A stretch of DNA of 64,000 nt from NCBI GenBank assembly GCA_903958395.1, contig CAJBSZ010000384.1, positions 3,156 through 67,155 of the forward strand, in the 5' to 3' direction. This stretch comes from an uncultured bacterium. GTDB lineage: Bacteria > Verrucomicrobiota > Kiritimatiellia > CAIKKV01 > CAITUY01. Under the pieces are notes generated by a model. It ran no database searches and was not told the DNA's origin. It was given only the letters and a program-made list of their open reading frames with translations. This document shows, in pieces, positions 53,804 to 63,858 of this stretch. The translations under genes were made by a program, and so were the position numbers. Every line of letters begins with the position of its first letter. Position 1 is the first letter of the stretch.

Positions 53804-54352
53804 ATGGCAGAATCTAAACATCTGTGTGACTGTCAACAGCAGGTTGATGAAGTCAAATGTCTTAAACGCCTGGATGTCGTCATCAAGGAATATCGGGAAA
53901 AGCCCGGGGCATTGATTCCTGTGCTCCAGATCGCCCAGGGGCTGTTCGGCTATCTTCCGGAAGTGGCGCTCAAGCGGATCAGTCTCGGCCTGGACAAATC
54001 CTACAGTGAAGTGGCCGGGGTGGTCGGGTTCTACTCGTTTTTTTCCACCGTTCCACGGGGCCGCAATCTGATCCGGGTCTGCCTGGGGACGGCGTGCTAT
54101 GTTCGTGGGGGCAAACAGGTGCTTGAGGCCATCAAGAAGCATCTGGGCATTGATGTGGGGCAGACCACGCCCGACAAACTTTTTTCGCTCGAGGTGGCCC
54201 GGTGTTTCGGCGCCTGTGGACTGGCCCCCGCCATCACCGTGAATGACGATGTCCATCAGCGGGTCAAGTCCGCGAAGGTGCATGAGATCATTAATTCCTA
54301 CAGGAAAGTTCCAAAAGGCAAGGCGGCCAGGCAGAAGAGGGTGAAGTCATGA
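53804..54352 (+). CDS. hydC: NuoE-like [2Fe-2S] thioredoxin-fold subunit (HydC/HndA type)
   Basis: IPVLQIAQ...CLGTACYVRGG...CFGACGLAP NuoE cysteine pattern; GAGGAG RBS. Confidence 0.85.
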   Translation: MAESKHLCDCQQQVDEVKCLKRLDVVIKEYREKPGALIPVLQIAQGLFGYLPEVALKRISLGLDKSYSEVAGVVGFYSFFSTVPRGRNLIRVCLGTACYVRGGKQVLEAIKKHLGIDVGQTTPDKLFSLEVARCFGACGLAPAITVNDDVHQRVKSAKVHEIINSYRKVPKGKAARQKRVKS

Positions 54353-57300
54353 CAGCACACAGGAAGATCGCAACCCCGGCCGCCCTGAAGGCTTTGGCGG
54401 CTGAATACAAAATCAAAGTTGAAGGCCGGATCCAGACCGGCGGTAAGGCACCCTCCGGAAAGATCAAGCATCATGTCCTCGTCTGTACCGGCGGCGGATG
54501 CATTGCATCGGGTGCGCTCGATGTCAAGGCCGCGCTGGAACAGGAAATCAAGCGGCTTGGCCTGGCTTCCCAGGTGAAGGTGTTTGCTACCGGGTGCCTG
54601 GGTCCCTGTGCGGTTGGTCCCGTGGTCGTGGTCTATCCCGAAGGGACATTCTACGAGAATCTCACGCCGAAGCGCGCGGTCCGGATTGCCCGGGAACACC
54701 TGAAGAAAGGGAAGATTGTGGAGGAGTTTGTCCACAAGAAGGAGCCCTTCCAAACCCCCGTGCCGGCCATGAAGGACATCGAGTTCCTGAACAAGCAGAC
54801 CAAGATCGTCCTGCGCAATTGCGGCATCATCGATCCCCTCAGTATTGAGGAGTATATCGGGCGCGACGGGTATCTGGCGTTGGCCAAAGTCCTGACCACG
54901 ATGAAGCCCGACGAGGTCATTGAGACCATTAAACAATCCGGCCTGCGCGGGCGGGGCGGGGCGGGGTTCCCAACATGGATGAAGTGGAGCCTGACCCGTA
55001 AGGCGGCGGGCGGTGAGAAGTACATGCTCTGCAACGCCGATGAGGGCGATCCCGGAGCGTTCATGGATCGTAGCGTGCTGGAGGGCGACCCCCACAGCGT
55101 GATCGAGGCCATGGTTATCGGCGCCTATGCGGTGGGCGCGTCAAAGGGGTTTGTGTATTGCCGTGCGGAATATCCGTTGGCGGTGGAACGGTTGACCAAA
55201 GCCATTGAAAGCGCCCGGGAGTCCGGCTTTCTGGGGAACGCCATTTTCGGATCGGATTTTAATTTTGACCTTGAAATCCGAATGGGAGCAGGCGCTTTTG
55301 TCTGCGGCGAGGAAACCGCGCTCATGACCTCCATCGAGGGGCAGCGCGGCGAGCCGCGCCCGCGTCCCCCCTTCCCGGCGAACAAGGGACTCTGGGGCAA
55401 GCCCAGCGTTTTAAATAATGTGGAAACCTATGCCTCCATCCCTGCCATTATCAATCGGGGGGCGGACTGGTTTGCCTCGTACGGAACCGGGAAGAGCAAG
55501 GGGACCAAGGTGTTCGCGCTGGCTGGTGCCGTGACCATGACGGGGCTGGTGGAAGTGCCGGTCGGAACCCCGCTCGGCGAGATCATCTATGATATCGGGG
55601 GCGGCATCCCCAACGGGAAGAAGTTCAAGGCGGCCCAGATTGGCGGGCCCTCAGGCGGGTGTATTCCGCGCCAGCACCTTAATGTGCCGGTGGACTATGA
55701 ATCCCTGGCGGAGCTCGGCGCGATCATGGGATCCGGCGGCTTGATCGTCATGGATGAGGACACCTGCATGGTGGATGTGGCCCGTTATTTCCTGGATTTT
55801 GTTCAGGATGAGTCGTGTGGAAAGTGCGTGCCCTGCCGCGTGGGCACCAAGCGAATGCTCGAGATTCTTGACCGGATTTGCGAGGGCCATGGCGAGATGG
55901 AGGATATCGATCGCCTGATCTCGCTGGGACACCAGATCCGCGACACGGCTCTGTGCGGACTCGGTCAGACGGCCGCCAATCCGGTTCTTTCGACGATCCG
56001 GCATTTCCGGAACGAGTACGAGGCGCATATCCGGCAGAAGCATTGCGAAGCCGGGATTTGCCCCGGGCTGGTTCGGGCTCCCTGCCAGAGCGCCTGTCCC
56101 GCCCATGTGGATGTTCCGGGATTTGTATCGCTGGTTGGCGAGAAACGGTATTCCGAAGCGTTAAAACTGCATCGTGAGCGCAATCCGTTTGCCTCGGTTT
56201 GTGCCCGGGTCTGTTTCCATACCTGTGAGGATAAGTGCCGCCGGGCCTCGCTCGATGATTCCGTTTCGATCCGGGGCATCAAGCGCTACATGGTGGATCA
56301 GGAGCTCAAGCCCCTGATTCCCGCCGTCCGGGAGAACAAGGAAAATGCGAAGCGCAAGGTGGCGATCATCGGTGCCGGTCCGGCAGGCTTGTCCTGCGCC
56401 TATTTTCTGGCCCGGCTGGGGTATCAGCCGAAGGTCTTCGAGGCGGAACCGCGGCCCGGGGGCATGCTGGTGCAGACCATTCCGGCCTACCGGTTACCGC
56501 GTGAGTTGCTGGCCCGGGAAATCCGGATGATTGAGCGGATGGGGGTGGAGATCAAGACGGGTAAGAAACTCGGTCGCGACTTTACCCTGGAGTCCCTCAA
56601 GAATCAGGGCTATGACGCCGTCTTTGTGGGCGTTGGTGCACCGGATGGAGTTCGTGTGGAGATGCCGGGCAGTGACGCCCGGGGCGTGGTTGAATCCATT
56701 GCCTTCCTGCGCGAATATAATCTCCGGGGGTCCGTCAAGGTGGGCAAGAAGGTGATCGTGGTCGGTGGCGGTAATGCGGCGATTGACGCCGCCCGGACCG
56801 CGCTGCGCCTGGGCGCGGCGGTGACGGTGGTGTACCGGCGCACCGAAGCAGAAATGCCGGCTTATGCCGAGGAAATCGAGCAGGCCCGCCAGGAGGGGGT
56901 TATTCTGCAGACGCTGACTGCGCCCGAGGAAATCATCGTCAAGAACGGTTCCGTGGCTGGGATGCGCTGCCGCCGGATGAAGCTGGGCGAGTTTGACCGG
57001 TCCGGCCGTCGCCGCCCGGAAGGGAGCGGGGAGGAACTGGTGCTGGATGCCGACCAGGTCATTTTGGCCATCGGCCAGACACTGGATGCCAAAAAGGTGA
57101 TTGGCGATCTTCCTGTTGAATTGATCGGGAAGAGCCAGATCATGGCGGAGGCCCTGACGGGAAAAACGAGCGTTCCCTGGCTCTTTGCCGGTGGCGATGC
57201 CGCCGTGGGCCCGTCGTCCGTCGTGGAGGCCGTGGCGTCCGGCGAGCGCGCGGCGGTCGGGATGGATGCGTACCTGACGGGTGAATCGCACGCCTTCTGG

Positions 57301-57522
57301 CGGGTCGAGGCGGTCGTGGAGACCGGGTTTGATCCCGATGCCGATCCCCGGATGGATCCCCGTGGCACGCTGGTGCTGTTGCCGGCGGAACGGCGGACAA
57401 ATAACTTTGATGAAGTGGAGCAATCCTGGTCGGAGACTGAGGCCGTGCGACAGGCCCGCCGGTGTCTCCGGTGTGATTACAGGGCGAAGGAAGAAAGCGA
57501 GAGTGTGCCATGCCGAAAGTGA
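54349..57522 (+). CDS. fusion protein: N-terminal [2Fe-2S] thioredoxin-like domain + NuoF-like FMN/NADH-binding core + C-terminal GltD/NfnB-like NADPH:FAD oxidoreductase module
   Basis: Residues 1-120 HndB-like 2Fe-2S (VCTGGGC...CLGPC); 130-560 NuoF (GLRGRGGAGFPT FMN site, ESCGKCVPCRVG 4Fe-4S); 560-1057 GltD (CEAGICPG...CQSACPAHVD, CARVCFHTCEDKC, VAIIGAGPAGLSCAYF, VIVVGGGNAAIDAA). Continuous 1057-aa ORF. Confidence 0.85.
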   Translation: MTAHRKIATPAALKALAAEYKIKVEGRIQTGGKAPSGKIKHHVLVCTGGGCIASGALDVKAALEQEIKRLGLASQVKVFATGCLGPCAVGPVVVVYPEGTFYENLTPKRAVRIAREHLKKGKIVEEFVHKKEPFQTPVPAMKDIEFLNKQTKIVLRNCGIIDPLSIEEYIGRDGYLALAKVLTTMKPDEVIETIKQSGLRGRGGAGFPTWMKWSLTRKAAGGEKYMLCNADEGDPGAFMDRSVLEGDPHSVIEAMVIGAYAVGASKGFVYCRAEYPLAVERLTKAIESARESGFLGNAIFGSDFNFDLEIRMGAGAFVCGEETALMTSIEGQRGEPRPRPPFPANKGLWGKPSVLNNVETYASIPAIINRGADWFASYGTGKSKGTKVFALAGAVTMTGLVEVPVGTPLGEIIYDIGGGIPNGKKFKAAQIGGPSGGCIPRQHLNVPVDYESLAELGAIMGSGGLIVMDEDTCMVDVARYFLDFVQDESCGKCVPCRVGTKRMLEILDRICEGHGEMEDIDRLISLGHQIRDTALCGLGQTAANPVLSTIRHFRNEYEAHIRQKHCEAGICPGLVRAPCQSACPAHVDVPGFVSLVGEKRYSEALKLHRERNPFASVCARVCFHTCEDKCRRASLDDSVSIRGIKRYMVDQELKPLIPAVRENKENAKRKVAIIGAGPAGLSCAYFLARLGYQPKVFEAEPRPGGMLVQTIPAYRLPRELLAREIRMIERMGVEIKTGKKLGRDFTLESLKNQGYDAVFVGVGAPDGVRVEMPGSDARGVVESIAFLREYNLRGSVKVGKKVIVVGGGNAAIDAARTALRLGAAVTVVYRRTEAEMPAYAEEIEQARQEGVILQTLTAPEEIIVKNGSVAGMRCRRMKLGEFDRSGRRRPEGSGEELVLDADQVILAIGQTLDAKKVIGDLPVELIGKSQIMAEALTGKTSVPWLFAGGDAAVGPSSVVEAVASGERAAVGMDAYLTGESHAFWRVEAVVETGFDPDADPRMDPRGTLVLLPAERRTNNFDEVEQSWSETEAVRQARRCLRCDYRAKEESESVPCRK

Positions 57523-59282
57523 CCATAGATGGGACTTCAGTGGAGGTTCCCGAGGGGACCTCGATTCTCAATGCGGCAAAATTGGTTGGGGTCAGGATTC
57601 CGACGTTATGTCACATGGAGGACATTCATGCCATCGGGGCCTGCCGCGTTTGCGTGGTGGAAGTGGAGGGGGCCAAAACCCTCGCCGCCTCTTGTGTCAT
57701 GCCGGTGTTCGACGGAATGAAAATCTCGACCCACACCAAACGGGTTCGTGAGGCGCGGCGGACGGTGGTGGAGTTATTGTTGTCCGAGCATAATGGCGAT
57801 TGCCAGGTGTGTGACCGCAATAACGACTGTGAACTTCAGGCTCTGGCCCATGAACTCGACATCAAGTCGATCCGGTTCGAAGGCGTCAAAACCGCAGCGG
57901 GTTTGGATACGAGCACGCCGGGTGTGGTTCGTGACAACGGCAAGTGCATCAAATGCCGGCGGTGTGTGGCGGTATGCGGGCAGATCCAGTCGGTGGGGGC
58001 ACTTTTCCCGCAGTTCCGTGGCTTTAAAACCGTGATCGGTCCCGCGTTCGGCGCGGATCTCGAGACGGTGGCCTGTGTCCAGTGCGGACAATGCGCGGCG
58101 GTGTGCCCCGTGGGGGCCATTTCCGAAAAAAGCCATATCTCGGAGGTGTGGAAGGCGCTGGACGACAAATCCAAGACCGTGGTGGTTCAGGTGGCACCGG
58201 CGGTGCGCGCTTCATTGGGTGAATGTTTCGGGATGGAACCCGGTACCCTGGTGACGGGCAAAATGGTGGCGGCCTTGCGGCGGCTCGGTTTTTCAGCGGT
58301 GTTCGACACCAATTTCACCGCCGATCTGACCATCATCGAGGAAGGACACGAGCTGTTGCATCGCCTGACGCTGGCGGTCAAGGATAAGAAGCCCGTGGCC
58401 CTGCCTCAGTTCACCAGTTGTTCGCCCGGCTGGATCCGCTACATGGAGTATTTCTATCCCGAAATGCTGCCGTACCTTTCCTCCTGCAAATCGCCCCAGC
58501 AGATGTTTGGCGCGCTGGCGAAGACCTATTGGGCCGGGAAAGTCGGAAAGAAGGCGGAGGACATCGTTGTGGTTTCCGTGATGCCGTGCCATGCCAAGAA
58601 ATCCGAATCCGAGCGGCCGGAGATGAATGACAGCGGTGTGCGGGATGTGGATGTGGCACTGACCACCCGTGAGTTGGGCCGGATGATCAAGGAGGCGGGA
58701 ATCGACTTCACTATGCTTCCGGAAGAGGGAATGGATTCCCTCATGGGAGCCTCAACCGGTGCGGCGGATATTTTCGCCAATAGCGGCGGGGTGATGGAAG
58801 CGGCGCTTCGGACCGTGTGGGAAGTGGTTACCGGACGGGAGTTGCCGTTCCTAAATCTCCATGTGCCGCCCCTGATGGGATTGAGCGGGATCAAACAAGC
58901 GGAAGCGACACTCACCGGTACGCTTCCGGCGTGGTCCTTCCTGGAGGGAGTCACCGTCAAGGTGGCGGTGGCGTCCAGCCTCAGCAATGCCAAGGTGCTG
59001 GTGGACAAGATCAAGACGGGCGAAGTGTCGTATCACTTCGTGGAAATCATGACGTGCCCCGGCGGCTGCATCGGCGGGGGCGGCCAGCCTCGCAAGACGA
59101 CCAACGAAATCCGGCAGAAGCGAATCAACGCCATCTACCGGGAGGATGAGGGGAAGAAACTCCGGAAATCGCACGAGAACCCGGAGGTTCTTAAGATCTA
59201 CGCGGAGTTTCTGGGTGAACCCCTCGGCAAAGTCTCCCATCACCTCCTTCATACGGAATATGGTGCCCGGCAACGGGTCTAA
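57510..59282 (+). CDS. hydA: [FeFe]-hydrogenase catalytic subunit (M3-type, group A bifurcating-like) with atypical L1 motif
   Basis: N-terminal 2Fe-2S plus 2x CxxCxxCxxxCP; H-cluster motifs L2 VMPCHAKKSE and L3 EIMTCPGGCIGGGGQP present; L1 is FTSCSPGW (Ser codon TCG at 58422-58424). Confidence 0.9.
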   Translation: MPKVTIDGTSVEVPEGTSILNAAKLVGVRIPTLCHMEDIHAIGACRVCVVEVEGAKTLAASCVMPVFDGMKISTHTKRVREARRTVVELLLSEHNGDCQVCDRNNDCELQALAHELDIKSIRFEGVKTAAGLDTSTPGVVRDNGKCIKCRRCVAVCGQIQSVGALFPQFRGFKTVIGPAFGADLETVACVQCGQCAAVCPVGAISEKSHISEVWKALDDKSKTVVVQVAPAVRASLGECFGMEPGTLVTGKMVAALRRLGFSAVFDTNFTADLTIIEEGHELLHRLTLAVKDKKPVALPQFTSCSPGWIRYMEYFYPEMLPYLSSCKSPQQMFGALAKTYWAGKVGKKAEDIVVVSVMPCHAKKSESERPEMNDSGVRDVDVALTTRELGRMIKEAGIDFTMLPEEGMDSLMGASTGAADIFANSGGVMEAALRTVWEVVTGRELPFLNLHVPPLMGLSGIKQAEATLTGTLPAWSFLEGVTVKVAVASSLSNAKVLVDKIKTGEVSYHFVEIMTCPGGCIGGGGQPRKTTNEIRQKRINAIYREDEGKKLRKSHENPEVLKIYAEFLGEPLGKVSHHLLHTEYGARQRV

Positions 59283-59414: not shown

Positions 59415-59477
59415 TTAAACATTTGACAGAGCTTGGGGCGATGGTGTAAACGTCTTTCCTTTCAAAAAAGGCCCCTT

Positions 59478-60125
59478 ATGAACACTGAAGACATGACCCG
59501 CTTAAAAATTCCGGTGGCGGTGGTTCGGCGGATGCCGAAATACCTGACCCAGGCCCAATACTTGCGTCAGGAAGGGGTGCAGTGGGTATCGTCGTTGTCC
59601 CTGGCCGAGGCGTTGGGCCTGACAAGTTCCACCGTGCGGCAGGATCTTTCACACATTGATTTTCAAGGGGTTTCCAAGCGCGGGTATTCAACCGTGGGCC
59701 TTGAGGCTGCTCTCGCCCGGACCCTCGGGGTTGACCATGACATCACCTGCATCCTGGTCGGTGCCGGAAACCTGGGCCGGGCCCTTGCCCTGCATGAGGG
59801 ATTCGGGCGGCAGGGCTTCAAGATTGTTGGCGTGTTTGACAGTTCTCCCGCCGTTGTGGGGAAAAAGGTCGGGCATTTTATTGTCCGGCCCATGGCGGAT
59901 CTGGTCGCCGTGGTGGCGCAGCAGAAAGTGGAGATCGGCATCCTGTCCGTTCCGCACGAGGCGGCACAGGCCGTGGCCGACCAGTTGATTTTGTCGCGAG
60001 TGCGCGGGTTGTTGAACCTGACCACCGCGCATCTCCGGACGCCGGCGGCGGTACCGGTGGTGGATACCCGCGTTTTGTCGAGTTTAAGGGAATTGGCCTA
60101 TTCGGTGAGGAGCCGGCAGGTATAG
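59478..60125 (+). CDS. rex: redox-sensing transcriptional repressor Rex
   Basis: N-terminal winged helix (RRMPKYL...LGLTSSTVRQDLSHI) and C-terminal Rossmann NADH-binding domain (ILVGAGNLGRAL). Confidence 0.85.
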   Translation: MNTEDMTRLKIPVAVVRRMPKYLTQAQYLRQEGVQWVSSLSLAEALGLTSSTVRQDLSHIDFQGVSKRGYSTVGLEAALARTLGVDHDITCILVGAGNLGRALALHEGFGRQGFKIVGVFDSSPAVVGKKVGHFIVRPMADLVAVVAQQKVEIGILSVPHEAAQAVADQLILSRVRGLLNLTTAHLRTPAAVPVVDTRVLSSLRELAYSVRSRQV

Positions 60126-60175
60126 GATTGAAAAGGGGTTCAGGGTTCGGGGTTGTAGTGCTTTAGAAAGGAATC

Positions 60176-62095
60176 ATGATGAGTAATCCAATGGAGCAGT
60201 TGCTTGAACGGCGCGAAAATGCCGAAAAACGACTTCGCCGGGAGAAATTTAACGCCAAGGTTCGTATCACGGTGGGATCCGCCACCTGTGAGAATGCGGC
60301 CGGGGCGCCTGACGTTTTCAAGAAGATTGAGGAATTGATCAGGAAGCACGGCTTGAAGGATGTTACCCTGAGCCGCGTGGGTTGTACCGGCCGGTGCGAC
60401 ATGGAGCCGGTGGTGACGGTGTTCAGCCAGCGAACCACTCCTGTGAAATACATCGCCATGACGCCCGACAAGGTGGAGAAGGTGTTCGACTCGCATGTCC
60501 TGAAGGCGATTCCGCTCAAGGCTCTGGCGATGCCCGTCGGGGTCGTTCAGGATACGGATTTCACCGAGGAGAAGCTCTGGGCGGATGCGAGACTCACGGA
60601 CCGGTTTTCGTCCGTTTTCGGTGATGTTCACTTTTTTGGCAAGCAGATGCGCATGACGCTGCGCAACTGCGGCGTGATTGACCCCGAGGACATGGATGAA
60701 TATCTCATGGTTCGCGGCTACCAGGCGGCGGTGAAGGTCCTCACCGAGATGACGCCCAATGATGTGGTCAATACCGTCATTAAGTCGGGCCTGCGTGGTC
60801 GCGGCGGCGGCGGGTTTTCAACGGGGGTTAAATGGAATTTCGCCCTCGCCCAGAAGAACGAGGAGAAGTACATCGTCTGCAATGCAGACGAGGGGGATCC
60901 CGGTGCGTTCATGGATCGCAGCACCATCGAGGGTGATCCCCACACCGTGATTGAGGGCATGATCATCGGAGGCTATGCGATTGGCGCCCGGGTGGGTTAT
61001 GTGTACATTCGGGCCGAGTATCCCCTCGCCATCAAGCGGCTGGAGCTCGCTATTGCGGCGGCCCGCCAGGCGGGGTTCCTCGGAACCGGAATTTTTGGAA
61101 CGAACTGGGATTTTGACATCGAGATCCGGCTCGGCGCAGGCGCATTTGTGTGCGGCGAGGAAACCGCCCTGATCCGGTCGATCGAAGGGGAACGCGGCAT
61201 GCCGCGGCCCCGTCCGCCGTATCCCGCCGCGTCGGGGTTGTGGGGCAAGCCCACGGTGATCAACAATGTTGAAACCTTTGCCAACATCCCCGTGGTGATT
61301 CTGGATGGGCCCGAATGGTTTTCGTCCATCGGTACGGCCAAGAGCAAGGGAACCAAGGTCTTCGCCCTGGCCGGAAAAGTCTGCAACACAGGCCTGGTTG
61401 AAGTGCCCATGGGCACAACGCTGCGGGATGTGGTGTACGGAGTCGGCGGCGGCATTCGCGACGGAAAGAAATTCAAGGCGGTCCAGACGGGCGGCCCCGC
61501 GGGCGGCTGCCTGCCCGAATCGTACCTCGACACCCCGGTGGACTATGAGTCGTTGACGGCGGCCGGCTCGATGATGGGCAGCGGTGGCATGATCGTGATC
61601 GACGAGGATTCCTGCATGGTGGACGTGGCCCGGTTCTTCCTGGATTTCACCCAGGACGAGTCCTGCGGAAAATGTACCCCGTGCCGGGAGGGGACCAAGC
61701 GCATGCTGGAAATCCTGCAGCGCATCACCTCGGGGCGTGGGGTTGAAGGCGATATCGAGAAGTTGCTGCGTCTGGGCGACACGATCAAGCGAACGTCGTT
61801 GTGCGGCCTGGGTCAGGCATCGCCGAATCCGGTGATCAGCACGATCAAGCATTTCCGTGACGAATATGAGGCGCATATCCGCGAGAAGCGGTGCCCGGCG
61901 GGTGTCTGCGCGGGGCTCCTCACCTTTTCGATCATTGCGGAGAAGTGCATCGGGTGCGGGGCCTGCAAGCGCAAGTGTCCCGTTCCCTGTATCGCGGGGA
62001 AGCCGAAGGAAGTTCATGAAATTGATCAGGCCCGCTGTATCAAGTGCGGGCAGTGTTTTGAGGCATGCAAGTTTGACGCAGTGAAGAGGAGCTAG
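60176..62095 (+). CDS. hydB: bifurcating [FeFe]-hydrogenase NuoF-like subunit HydB (2Fe-2S Trx-like + FMN/NADH core + C-terminal 2x[4Fe-4S])
   Basis: GLRGRGGGGFSTGVKW FMN motif, ESCGKCTPCREG, C-terminal CIGCGACKRKCP and CIKCGQCFEAC ferredoxin motifs. Confidence 0.9.
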   Translation: MMSNPMEQLLERRENAEKRLRREKFNAKVRITVGSATCENAAGAPDVFKKIEELIRKHGLKDVTLSRVGCTGRCDMEPVVTVFSQRTTPVKYIAMTPDKVEKVFDSHVLKAIPLKALAMPVGVVQDTDFTEEKLWADARLTDRFSSVFGDVHFFGKQMRMTLRNCGVIDPEDMDEYLMVRGYQAAVKVLTEMTPNDVVNTVIKSGLRGRGGGGFSTGVKWNFALAQKNEEKYIVCNADEGDPGAFMDRSTIEGDPHTVIEGMIIGGYAIGARVGYVYIRAEYPLAIKRLELAIAAARQAGFLGTGIFGTNWDFDIEIRLGAGAFVCGEETALIRSIEGERGMPRPRPPYPAASGLWGKPTVINNVETFANIPVVILDGPEWFSSIGTAKSKGTKVFALAGKVCNTGLVEVPMGTTLRDVVYGVGGGIRDGKKFKAVQTGGPAGGCLPESYLDTPVDYESLTAAGSMMGSGGMIVIDEDSCMVDVARFFLDFTQDESCGKCTPCREGTKRMLEILQRITSGRGVEGDIEKLLRLGDTIKRTSLCGLGQASPNPVISTIKHFRDEYEAHIREKRCPAGVCAGLLTFSIIAEKCIGCGACKRKCPVPCIAGKPKEVHEIDQARCIKCGQCFEACKFDAVKRS

Positions 62096-62097
62096 TC

Positions 62098-63858
62098 ATG
62101 ACAACAGAAAAAAAAGTAACGCTGTGGATTGACGGCGTCAAGGTGACGGTGCCTGAAAAGACCACCATTCTCCAGGCGGCCGACTCAATCAATATCAATG
62201 TTCCCAGCCTGTGCTATCACCCCGACCTGAGCGTGATTGGCGCCTGCCGGGTTTGCGTGGTGGAGGTCGACGGGCAACGCAATCCGGTGGCTTCCTGCTC
62301 GTATCCGGTGGCCGAGGGAATGAAGGTCAAGACCTCCTCGCCCCTGCTGCGGCGCCTCCGTCGTGATGTCGTTGAGCTGATCCTGGACAATCATCCCCAG
62401 GATTGCCAGTCGTGCGTGCGGAACGGAACCTGCGAGTTGCAGAAGCTGGCCTACGATCTGGGGGTCCGGGAACGCCTGTTCGAGGGCGAACGCAAGCGCT
62501 TTCCCGTGGACACTTCGTCCCCGGTGCACCGCAATCCCGAGAAGTGCATCTTGTGCGGCCGCTGTGTGCGGGTTTGTGATGAGGTGCAGGGCGTTCATAA
62601 TCTGAGCGTCCAGCACCGCGGTTTCCATAATGTCGTGGCTCCGGCGCATGACTGCAAGATGATTGATTCCGTTTGTATTCATTGCGGGCAGTGCGTCAAC
62701 GTCTGCCCCACAGCCGCCTTCACGGAGCAGGATGCCACGGAGTCGGTGTTCGAGGCCTTGTCGAACCCGGATCTTCATGTCGTGGTTCACACCGCGCCGG
62801 CGATCCGGGCTACGATCGGCGAGGGGTTCGGGTTCCGGCCGGGCACGCCGGTGACTGGAAAGCTGGTCACGGCACTGCGTATGGCCGGCTTTCACAAGGT
62901 GTTCGACACGAATTTCGGAGCCGACCTCACGATCATCGAGGAGTCCACGGAGTTTCTGAGCCGGGTCCAGAAAAAAGAACGGCTCCCGTTGATCACATCC
63001 TGTTCGCCCGGGTGGGTGAATTTCATGGAGCGCTTTTATCCGGAGCTGATTCCCCTGACCTCTACCTGCAAGTCGCCGATGAGCATGCTATCGACGCTTC
63101 TGAAAACCTACTACGCCCAGCAGATGGGAGTGGATCCCGAGAAAATCTTTGTGGTGGCGGTGATGCCCTGTACGGCCAAGAAGTTCGAGGCGAAACGCTC
63201 CGAGCACATGGCGCCGTGGGGCAAACCCTATACGGATGCGGTGCTGACCACCCGGGAACTGGTCTGGATGCTGAAGTGTCTCGGTGTGGATTTTCATAAT
63301 CTTGAGGACAGTGCCTTTGACTCCCCGCTCGGAGTCTCCTCGGGTGCGGCGGATATCTTCGGCGCGACAGGCGGCGTCATGGAGGCGGCTTTGCGTACGG
63401 CCTACGAGAAGATTACCGGGCAGGAGCTGGAAGCCCTTGATTTCGAGACGGTTCGCGGGGTGGAGGGCGTCAAGGAGACGTCGATCCAGATCAATGGCCT
63501 GACCATCAATATCGGCGTGGCCAATGGTCTCCAGAACGCCAAGAACCTGCTGGACCGCGTCGCCAGCGGCGAGAAGCAATACCACATCATCGAGATTATG
63601 GCGTGTCCGGGCGGTTGCGTGGCCGGTGGCGGGCAACCCTATCCGCCCCGCGGTATGCATGTGCTGGACCCGGAGTTGGGTCGATTGCGGGCCAAGGCGC
63701 TCTACTCGATTGACGGCAGCAAGTCGCTGCGGAAATCGCATGAGAATCCCGCCATCGAACTGTTGTATGAGAATTTCCTGGGCGCGCCGAACAGTCATCT
63801 GTGCCATGAGTTGCTGCATACCCATTATGAACCCAAGACCCCGCGAGGTGTGAAATGA
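62098..63858 (+). CDS. hydA: [FeFe]-hydrogenase catalytic subunit, second paralog, same atypical L1
   Basis: Same architecture as the first hydA; L1 ITSCSPGW (Ser TCG at 63004-63006), L2 VMPCTAKKFE, L3 EIMACPGGCVAGGGQP. Confidence 0.9.
   Translation: MTTEKKVTLWIDGVKVTVPEKTTILQAADSININVPSLCYHPDLSVIGACRVCVVEVDGQRNPVASCSYPVAEGMKVKTSSPLLRRLRRDVVELILDNHPQDCQSCVRNGTCELQKLAYDLGVRERLFEGERKRFPVDTSSPVHRNPEKCILCGRCVRVCDEVQGVHNLSVQHRGFHNVVAPAHDCKMIDSVCIHCGQCVNVCPTAAFTEQDATESVFEALSNPDLHVVVHTAPAIRATIGEGFGFRPGTPVTGKLVTALRMAGFHKVFDTNFGADLTIIEESTEFLSRVQKKERLPLITSCSPGWVNFMERFYPELIPLTSTCKSPMSMLSTLLKTYYAQQMGVDPEKIFVVAVMPCTAKKFEAKRSEHMAPWGKPYTDAVLTTRELVWMLKCLGVDFHNLEDSAFDSPLGVSSGAADIFGATGGVMEAALRTAYEKITGQELEALDFETVRGVEGVKETSIQINGLTINIGVANGLQNAKNLLDRVASGEKQYHIIEIMACPGGCVAGGGQPYPPRGMHVLDPELGRLRAKALYSIDGSKSLRKSHENPAIELLYENFLGAPNSHLCHELLHTHYEPKTPRGVK

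Follow-up and report, generated by a model that had tools for sequence, protein, structure and literature searches.

Serine at the position of a cubane-ligating cysteine in the L1 motif of two paralogous [FeFe] hydrogenase subunits: a known and widespread natural variant

Introduction

Does a serine in the L1 motif of an [FeFe] hydrogenase mark an altered enzyme, and which of the two L1 cysteines does it replace? The question is raised by a 64,000-nucleotide stretch of DNA (the window) from an uncultured PVC-group/Verrucomicrobiota-like bacterium, which encodes two paralogous catalytic subunits, HydA-1 and HydA-2, both reading TSCSPGW at L1 (also termed P1). The commonest form of this motif is xTSCCPxx; in CpI its two cysteines are, in order, C299, which serves as proton relay, and C300, a ligand of the [4Fe-4S]H cubane of the H-cluster (bioRxiv 10.1101/2023.06.23.541094). 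The original prediction for this locus had assigned the canonical TSCCPxW in the same way, and had regarded the serine as unusual and as bound to alter catalysis, whether through ligation by the serine oxygen or through a shift of register. We find the L1 serine to be a known natural variant, widespread and benign-looking in function, and not a new one: alignments have recorded the exchange since 2013 or earlier, and in 2023 it was seen in a solved active enzyme.

Results

H-cluster motifs and domain architecture of HydA-1 and HydA-2

The L1 motif of HydA-1 (58413..58433, + strand) is read in frame from ACC AGT TGT TCG CCC GGC TGG as T302-S-C-S305-P-G-W308, the TCG codon of Ser305 lying at 58422..58424. 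In HydA-2 the same heptapeptide (62995..63015, + strand; T300-S-C-S303-P-G-W306) is encoded in frame by ACA TCC TGT TCG CCC GGG TGG and Ser303 is again specified by TCG (63004..63006), a codon from which TGY is reached only via two substitutions. L2 and L3 are intact in both paralogues. L2 is MPCHAKKSE in HydA-1 (58581..58607, + strand), with the cluster ligand Cys360 and the Lys and Glu of the motif, and MPCTAKKFE in HydA-2 (63163..63189, + strand). L3 of HydA-1, EIMTCPGGCIGGGGQP (59043..59090, + strand), has two cluster cysteines, one of them bridging to the di-iron site; the corresponding element of HydA-2 is EIMACPGGCVAGGGQP (63592..63639, + strand). The sequence bears out the original prediction on each of these points, including the distance of the serine codon from a cysteine codon and the intact state of L2 and L3.

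HydA-1 (57510..59282, + strand, 590 aa) is identified by Pfam, NCBIfam and PDB matches as an M3-type [FeFe] hydrogenase catalytic subunit, with the layout 2Fe-2S, His-ligated 4Fe-4S, two 4Fe-4S, H-domain and a small-subunit-like C-terminus. HydA-2 (62098..63858, + strand, 586 aa) is a paralogue with the same domain architecture according to Pfam, NCBIfam and BLASTP. Pfam detects the full M3 set in both proteins, namely Fer2_4, NADH-G_4Fe-4S_3, two Fer4, Fe_hyd_lg_C (PF02906, 7e-94 in both) and Fe_hyd_SSU (PF02256, 5e-25 and 4e-22). The two proteins score 501 and 503 bits against the group A model TIGR02512 (cutoff 406) and 870.5 (HydA-1) and 837.1 bits (HydA-2) against NCBIfam NF040763 [NADH-dependent [FeFe] hydrogenase, group A6; curated cutoff 765]. 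They are only 48% identical to each other (BLASTP), so we regard them as old paralogues and not as products of a recent duplication.

The serine occupies the position of the cubane ligand

Both window proteins were aligned by MAFFT with CpI, the HydA1 subunits of T. kivui and A. woodii and about 155 database homologues. Ser305 of HydA-1 and Ser303 of HydA-2 share a column with CpI C300, T. kivui Cys299 and A. woodii Ser301, and the preceding cysteines (Cys304 in HydA-1, Cys302 in HydA-2) line up with CpI C299. The alignment yields Ser301 for A. woodii and Cys299 for T. kivui, in exact agreement with the numbering of the primary paper, and this validates the register. One of the two canonical L1 cysteines is absent, as had been predicted; it is the equivalent of C300, and that of C299 is kept. 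Beyond C299 itself, the residues retained in both paralogues are, in CpI numbering, E279, E282, R286, S319, M353, C355, K358, E361, M497, C499 and C503. Together with C299 they include every one of the five positions of the proton-transfer pathway C299-E279-S319-E282-R286 (defined in bioRxiv 10.1101/2023.06.23.541094). The positions that make up the ligand set of [4Fe-4S]H are thus filled in both paralogues by three cysteines (one from L2, two from L3) and the L1 serine, where the classical set has four cysteines.

Comparison with characterised hydrogenases

Among characterised enzymes, the nearest relative that shares this motif is HydA1 of the A. woodii HydABC(D) complex (PDB-ids: 7Q4V, 7Q4W, 8A5E). 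It reads ITSCSPGW, an L1 identical to that of both paralogues, shares 51% identity with HydA-1 and 48.5% with HydA-2, has the same domain architecture and is identical to both in L2, L3 and the proton pathway. The hosts differ, A. woodii being an acetogenic Firmicute. In the A. woodii enzyme Ser301 replaces a Cys ligand of the A1 cluster and was modelled as a ligand; the infrared signature of the H-cluster is apparently unaffected, with typical Hox, HoxH and Hhyd states in FTIR, and the enzyme is an active bidirectional bifurcating hydrogenase whose activities are similar to those of the TSCCP enzyme of T. kivui (Katsyv et al., 2023). Ligation by Ser301 was asserted from the cryo-EM maps, without further spectroscopy of the cubane, and the natural Ser ligand was remarked upon without an explanation of its tolerance (Katsyv et al., 2023). 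Since TSCSPGW is found in a solved and characterised electron-bifurcating enzyme, the motif is an ordinary one in the window paralogues, and the view that the serine must alter catalysis is not supported.

A PDB sequence search with HydA-1 gives two nearly equal top matches, 8a6t_A (1.5e-181) and 7q4v_A (8.6e-181). The first and best of these, HydA1 of T. kivui HydABC (PDB-ids: 8A6T, 8BEW; about 51% identity), has the same architecture and function class, but it carries the canonical FTSCCPSW and an all-Cys cubane. CpI and CrHydA1, the prototypical group A1 enzymes, share the H-domain fold, L2, L3, the proton pathway and the relay Cys with the window paralogues (CpI is 41-42% identical to the window HydA proteins); they differ in having TSCCPGW and in being monomeric and ferredoxin-dependent. 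Another natural variation of the P1 loop is seen in the TSCCCP hydrogenases of group B2 (M2a), such as CpIII, MeII and ToHydA, although there an extra Cys is inserted, no ligand is replaced, and the proteins belong to another phylogenetic group with another architecture.

In CrHydA1 an engineered Cys-to-Ser exchange at this ligand (C115S in the numbering of Kertess et al., 2017; C170S in standard numbering) destroys both cluster occupancy and activity. We take C115 to be the second of the two adjacent cysteines, since Cys114 is called its neighbour. The inactive variant was 'particularly surprising' to its authors in view of the natural serines (Kertess et al., 2017), and it follows that Ser ligation is not tolerated by every scaffold. 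The lasting contrast is that the engineered serine is dead in CrHydA1, yet about one-fifth of natural sequences, including a highly active bifurcating enzyme, carry Ser.

Proposed arrangement at the [4Fe-4S] subcluster

The reading that we favour, with a probability of roughly 0.8, is that the register of L1 is unchanged and that the enzymes are normal and active. The retained cysteine (Cys304 in HydA-1, Cys302 in HydA-2) would be the proton relay beside the azadithiolate bridge, and Ser305 or Ser303 would replace the first Cys ligand of the [4Fe-4S] subcluster, presumably binding iron via its oxygen as the hydroxyl or the alkoxide. This oxygen would be the fourth ligand of [4Fe-4S]H, the remaining three being the usual cysteines of L2 and L3. 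By analogy with A. woodii HydABC, the H-cluster would assemble normally and the enzyme would turn over H2 reversibly. The sequence, homology, conservation and equivalence of positions come from the present analysis; Ser ligation and normal spectroscopy and activity come from the literature on a homologue of about 50% identity, and it is from this A. woodii protein that we infer both for HydA-1 and HydA-2.

Variants of the relay cysteine (C299/C169) lose nearly all activity. It is therefore hard to see how the A. woodii enzyme could be normally active had it lost its relay Cys, and the strict conservation of E279, S319, E282 and R286 in both window paralogues speaks for continued use of the relay Cys. 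These points bear on the second of the two options in the original prediction, a shift of register that puts Ser in place of the relay Cys. After such a shift the lone L1 Cys would ligate the [4Fe-4S] cluster, the serine would be a bystander, and the relay would be lost or taken over by the Ser hydroxyl, water or the like. The shift would receive some help from the suggestion that a neighbouring Cys could substitute in an Ala variant of CrHydA1 (Kertess et al.), and from the Gly at +2, which is present in 21 of 22 TSCSP sequences as against 37% of TSCCP sequences and could add flexibility to the loop. Cryo-EM maps such as those of the A. woodii complex may be unable to tell an O ligand from an S ligand, but the authors of the structure model Ser301 as the ligand and the enzyme combines normal activity with the normal Hox/HoxH/Hhyd pattern. 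We consider the shift unlikely. Ligation by Ser-O, the first option, fits both Ser301 of A. woodii and the C300 column of the alignment, and the shift is the less supported of the two.

Gene neighbourhood

The HydA genes lie in two clusters, HydC, HydB-1 and HydA-1 in cluster 1 and HydB-2 and HydA-2 in cluster 2, the latter with no separate HydC gene adjacent. HydC (53804..54352, + strand) is a NuoE-like thioredoxin-type [2Fe-2S] subunit (Pfam 2Fe-2S_thioredx, 1.7e-47), for which every match to the NuoE/HoxE-like models of NCBIfam is below the curated cutoff. Upstream (5') of 53804 the window contains unrelated transporters, a PfkB kinase and similar genes; its GC content is 58.6%.

HydB-1 (54349..57522, + strand, 1057 aa) is shown by Pfam and the PDB search to consist of a NuoF-like FMN/NAD(H) core with GGPSGG and a C-terminal GltD-like module (two 4Fe-4S, FAD, NAD(P)H). 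The Pfam domains are Complex1_51K, NADH_4Fe-4S, Fer4_20 and Pyr_redox_2; in the PDB, residues 40-577 match 7t2r_B and 7q4v_B, and residues 573-1046 match 9bov_A, 8oh5_C and 9n5u_A. Of 80 related loci, 64 contain a similarly long HydB (at least 900 aa) with a GltD-type GxGxxG, which lies immediately 5' of the HydA-1 orthologue in those listed. We found no literature on a HydB-GltD fusion.

Between the two clusters is a gene for a Rex-like redox-sensing repressor (59433..60125, + strand; Pfam Put_DNA-bind_N and CoA_binding), which scores 191 bits against the NCBIfam Rex model NF003995 (cutoff 126). HydB-2 (60176..62095, + strand, 639 aa) resembles, by Pfam and PDB search, the NuoF-like HydB that is the partner of HydA1 in A. 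woodii; the best PDB match, 7q4v_B (4e-237), covers the full length (residues 34-638). It is laid out as an N-terminal thioredoxin-like 2Fe-2S domain, a NuoF core with GGPAGG and a C-terminal domain with two 4Fe-4S clusters.

Each cluster has the feature by which a HydABC-type (Bfu) hydrogenase is recognised, an adjacent NuoF-like HydB together with a NuoE-like subunit or domain. Neither is a copy of the A. woodii arrangement. In cluster 1, HydB-1 has the GltD-like NAD(P)H/FAD module where the C-terminal ferredoxin domain stands in A. woodii, whereas cluster 2 lacks the adjacent HydC gene and HydB-2 has GGPAGG, not GGPSG. GGPSG in HydB is a feature of bifurcating enzymes (Losey, 2020). As a proxy for bifurcation it gives a mixed result: HydB-1 has GGPSGG but is without the C-terminal ferredoxin-type domain, and HydB-2 has GGPAGG but keeps its 2x[4Fe-4S] domain. 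Both HydA genes probably code for working catalytic subunits of group A [FeFe] hydrogenases of the multimeric, pyridine-nucleotide-linked kind (HydABC type; group A6), within the common natural TSCSPGW subclass.

Some variants of the H-cluster motifs, for example those of the group C/D sensory enzymes, combine an altered L1 with low activity. By this precedent the serine could mark a degenerate, non-catalytic or purely regulatory (sensory-like) homologue, and some of the representatives near HydA-2 discussed below do have a strongly degraded L1, such as SSSSPAW or VSNSEGI. In the window paralogues, however, every other ligand and pathway residue is intact, the genes belong to HydC-HydB-HydA and HydB-HydA operons, no PAS or kinase domain is found in HydA-1 or HydA-2, and A. 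woodii HydA1, with the same motif, belongs to a fully active enzyme. The trimeric hydrogenases of Melainabacteria, described as having 'TSCSPGW rather than TSCCPAW', additionally lack one L3 Cys (Di Rienzi et al., 2013, eLife, PMC3787301), and here too the window paralogues differ, as they keep it. A degenerate or sensory role is very improbable for HydA-1 and HydA-2. For annotation practice, TSCSPGW should be read as no sign of a defective or exotic hydrogenase.

Frequency and conservation of the L1 serine

Ser at this position was reported in about 20% of putative hydrogenase sequences (Kertess et al., 2017), a figure for which these authors cite Winkler, Esselborn and Happe (2013). Around HydA-2 we obtain a similar value: of the 50%-identity representatives, 1.84 billion in all, the 150 best for HydA-2 include 128 with an intact C-x-P core at the aligned column, and these divide into 22 with C-S-P and 106 with C-C-P (22/128, 17%). 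TSCSPxW is therefore widespread, and it occurs in a characterised active group A enzyme; this is the outcome of the broad HydA alignment that the original prediction had proposed as a check and had named as the one that would count against it, and its view of the feature as unusual has to be given up. With the same exchange in the active A. woodii enzyme and in some 17-20% of the family, a strict four-Cys definition of the ligand set is too narrow. A full-text literature search for TSCSP returned Di Rienzi et al. (2013) as the sole relevant match, the remainder being mostly unrelated acronyms, and in the review of Morra (2022) and in Losey (2020) we found no statement on the HydA L1 motif or its Ser.

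Closer to HydA-1 the serine is nearly invariant. TSCSPGW is present in 119 of the 120 best HydA-1 homologues, down to 70% identity. In 80 orthologous loci from species-representative genomes, 77 have [T/S]SCSPGW and three TSCCP[A/S]W. The phyla represented include Verrucomicrobiota, Kiritimatiellia, Lentisphaerae/Victivallales, Fibrobacterota, Planctomycetota, Hydrogenedentota, Spirochaetota, Bacteroidota, Myxococcota and Actinomycetota MAGs, among others. In operon type the three Cys-bearing loci (L030, L043 and L076) are no different from the Ser loci, and the Ser and Cys states thus interchange within one orthologous group. The Ser codons of the HydA genes in the 80 loci and the window are TCG (61), TCT (13), TCC (8), TCA (4) and AGC (1). 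All four TCN codons and AGC are thus in use while the residue stays the same, a pattern of synonymous turnover under selection for Ser; judged from these counts and codons, strong purifying selection acts on the L1 serine.

The same data refute both an error of sequencing or assembly and a recent chance mutation. Neither has anything in its favour beyond its a priori possibility, and the original prediction had rightly thought a sequencing error improbable. The codon is the same in two independent paralogues of 48% identity, the motif recurs in the 119 homologues and 77 loci above, and the site varies synonymously.

In a rough neighbour-joining tree without support values, which is a guide and not a basis for counting Cys/Ser switches, most TSCSP sequences, both window paralogues and A. 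woodii HydA1 fall in one clade in which TSCCP forms are interspersed. Further isolated TSCSP sequences lie outside this main clade.

Co-varying positions and a possible tuning role

At several positions near L1 and L3, residue frequencies in the Ser set of the alignment depart from those in the Cys set, namely at G302, F296 (to I), V496 (to I), A498 and V304 (to I); these differences are confounded by phylogeny and serve only as a lead. In the literature we found no explanation for why Ser is tolerated or preferred in natural scaffolds, and no measurement of its effect on cluster potential, bias or O2 sensitivity in natural TSCSP enzymes. It is conceivable, though we hold it doubtful, that the Ser ligand is an adaptive tuning device that lowers, or shifts in some other way, the potential or valence distribution of [4Fe-4S]H, selected in pyridine-nucleotide-linked multimeric hydrogenases and dependent on co-adapted second-sphere residues. 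The second-sphere set would comprise the Gly at +2, Ile for Phe at -4, and Ile or Thr around the L3 Cys. Tuning of this kind, if true, would explain why Cys-to-Ser kills CrHydA1 but not these enzymes, and the 77:3 split of Ser and Cys in one orthologous operon type would be a natural experiment on catalytic bias. Independently of that explanation, the HydA-1 orthologous group, with 77 Ser and three Cys members that have the same operon partners, is a handy panel for relating an O-ligand to potential, bias and O2 sensitivity.

Two minor observations concern the orthologous loci themselves. In some loci from Spirochaetota and Hydrogenedentota the tblastn matches span about 2540 nt; an insertion in HydA was considered and rejected, as the second HSP lies in a downstream kinase-like ORF of about 680 aa (L037 and L025 inspected). 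The loci closest to the window are from uncultured PVC-group/Verrucomicrobiota MAGs (L001-L005, 96-97% protein identity), and the tandem two-cluster arrangement recurs in these closest relatives.

Architecture of the two hydrogenase clusters

HydB-1 (54349..57522, + strand) is a 1057-aa fusion protein in which a NuoE-like 2Fe-2S domain is followed by a NuoF/BfuB core carrying GGPSGG and then by a GltD-like module composed of Fer4_20 and Pyr_redox_2. This module occupies the place of the C-terminal ferredoxin domain of Acetobacterium woodii HydB, the partner of the TSCSPGW-bearing HydA1 in the bifurcating HydABC, and resembles the NADPH-binding parts of the Stn/Nfn-Bfu ‘A’ subunits (9bov_A, 8oh5_C, 9n5u_A). 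Among the 80 related loci, drawn from species genomes of many phyla, 64 encode a similarly long HydB (at least 900 aa) with a GltD-type GxGxxG motif; in the loci whose genes were listed, its gene immediately precedes that of the HydA-1 ortholog. The broad recurrence of the long form suggests an enzyme type, made up of GltD-fused HydB and HydA, that links H2, NAD(H) and NADP(H) and is widespread; a literature search found no description of such a HydB-GltD fusion enzyme.

The second cluster, Rex - hydB-2 - hydA-2 (59433..63858, + strand), has no separate hydC gene adjoining it, and the tandem layout of the two clusters is kept in L001, L002, L005, L006, L007, L009, L010 and L013 of the related loci. 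HydB-2 has the complete architecture of A. woodii HydB (match to 7q4v_B, 4e-237). However, it carries GGPAGG at the position of GGPSG, which is reported for all putative bifurcating beta subunits (Losey et al., 2020). Given this substitution, the enzyme may be dimeric, non-bifurcating and NADH-dependent, like Syntrophus aciditrophicus HydAB. A Rex gene immediately precedes hydB-2 - hydA-2, which suggests NADH/NAD+-responsive regulation.

Serine and cysteine forms of L1

Three HydA-1 orthologs, from Sedimentisphaerales, Verrucomicrobiota and Kapabacteria MAGs, carry the canonical motif, TSCCP[A/S]W (L030, 5998..7761; L043, 5983..7761; L076, 5971..7737). They belong to the same hydB::gltD operon type as HydA-1 and are natural Cys counterparts inside an otherwise Ser-bearing orthologous group.

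Residue frequencies of TSCSP and TSCCP sequences, compared in the alignment at CpI columns 296, 302, 304, 496 and 498, are unequal around L1 and L3. Gly at +2 is present in 95% of TSCSP but 37% of TSCCP sequences, and Ile is commoner in the Ser set both in place of Phe at -4 and in place of Val before the L3 Met. Co-adaptation of second-sphere residues to the Ser ligand may underlie these alignment differences, or they may simply stem from shared ancestry.

Other HydA-related sequences

Loci of Spirochaetota and Hydrogenedentota have, right after hydA, an ORF of ~680 aa (L037, 7785..9830; L025, 7774..9807), with similar cases in L032, L034, L038, L045, L053 and L058. Its C-terminus is histidine-kinase-like and it gives rise to an extra tblastn HSP to HydA; the product may be a hydrogenase-related sensor kinase. 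Seven stretches of a database representative protein of 4122 aa (P0121) match HydA, and seven L2 and six L3 motifs occur in it. This protein is probably an artefact, of concatenation or of gene calling, or else a tandem-fused hydrogenase array.
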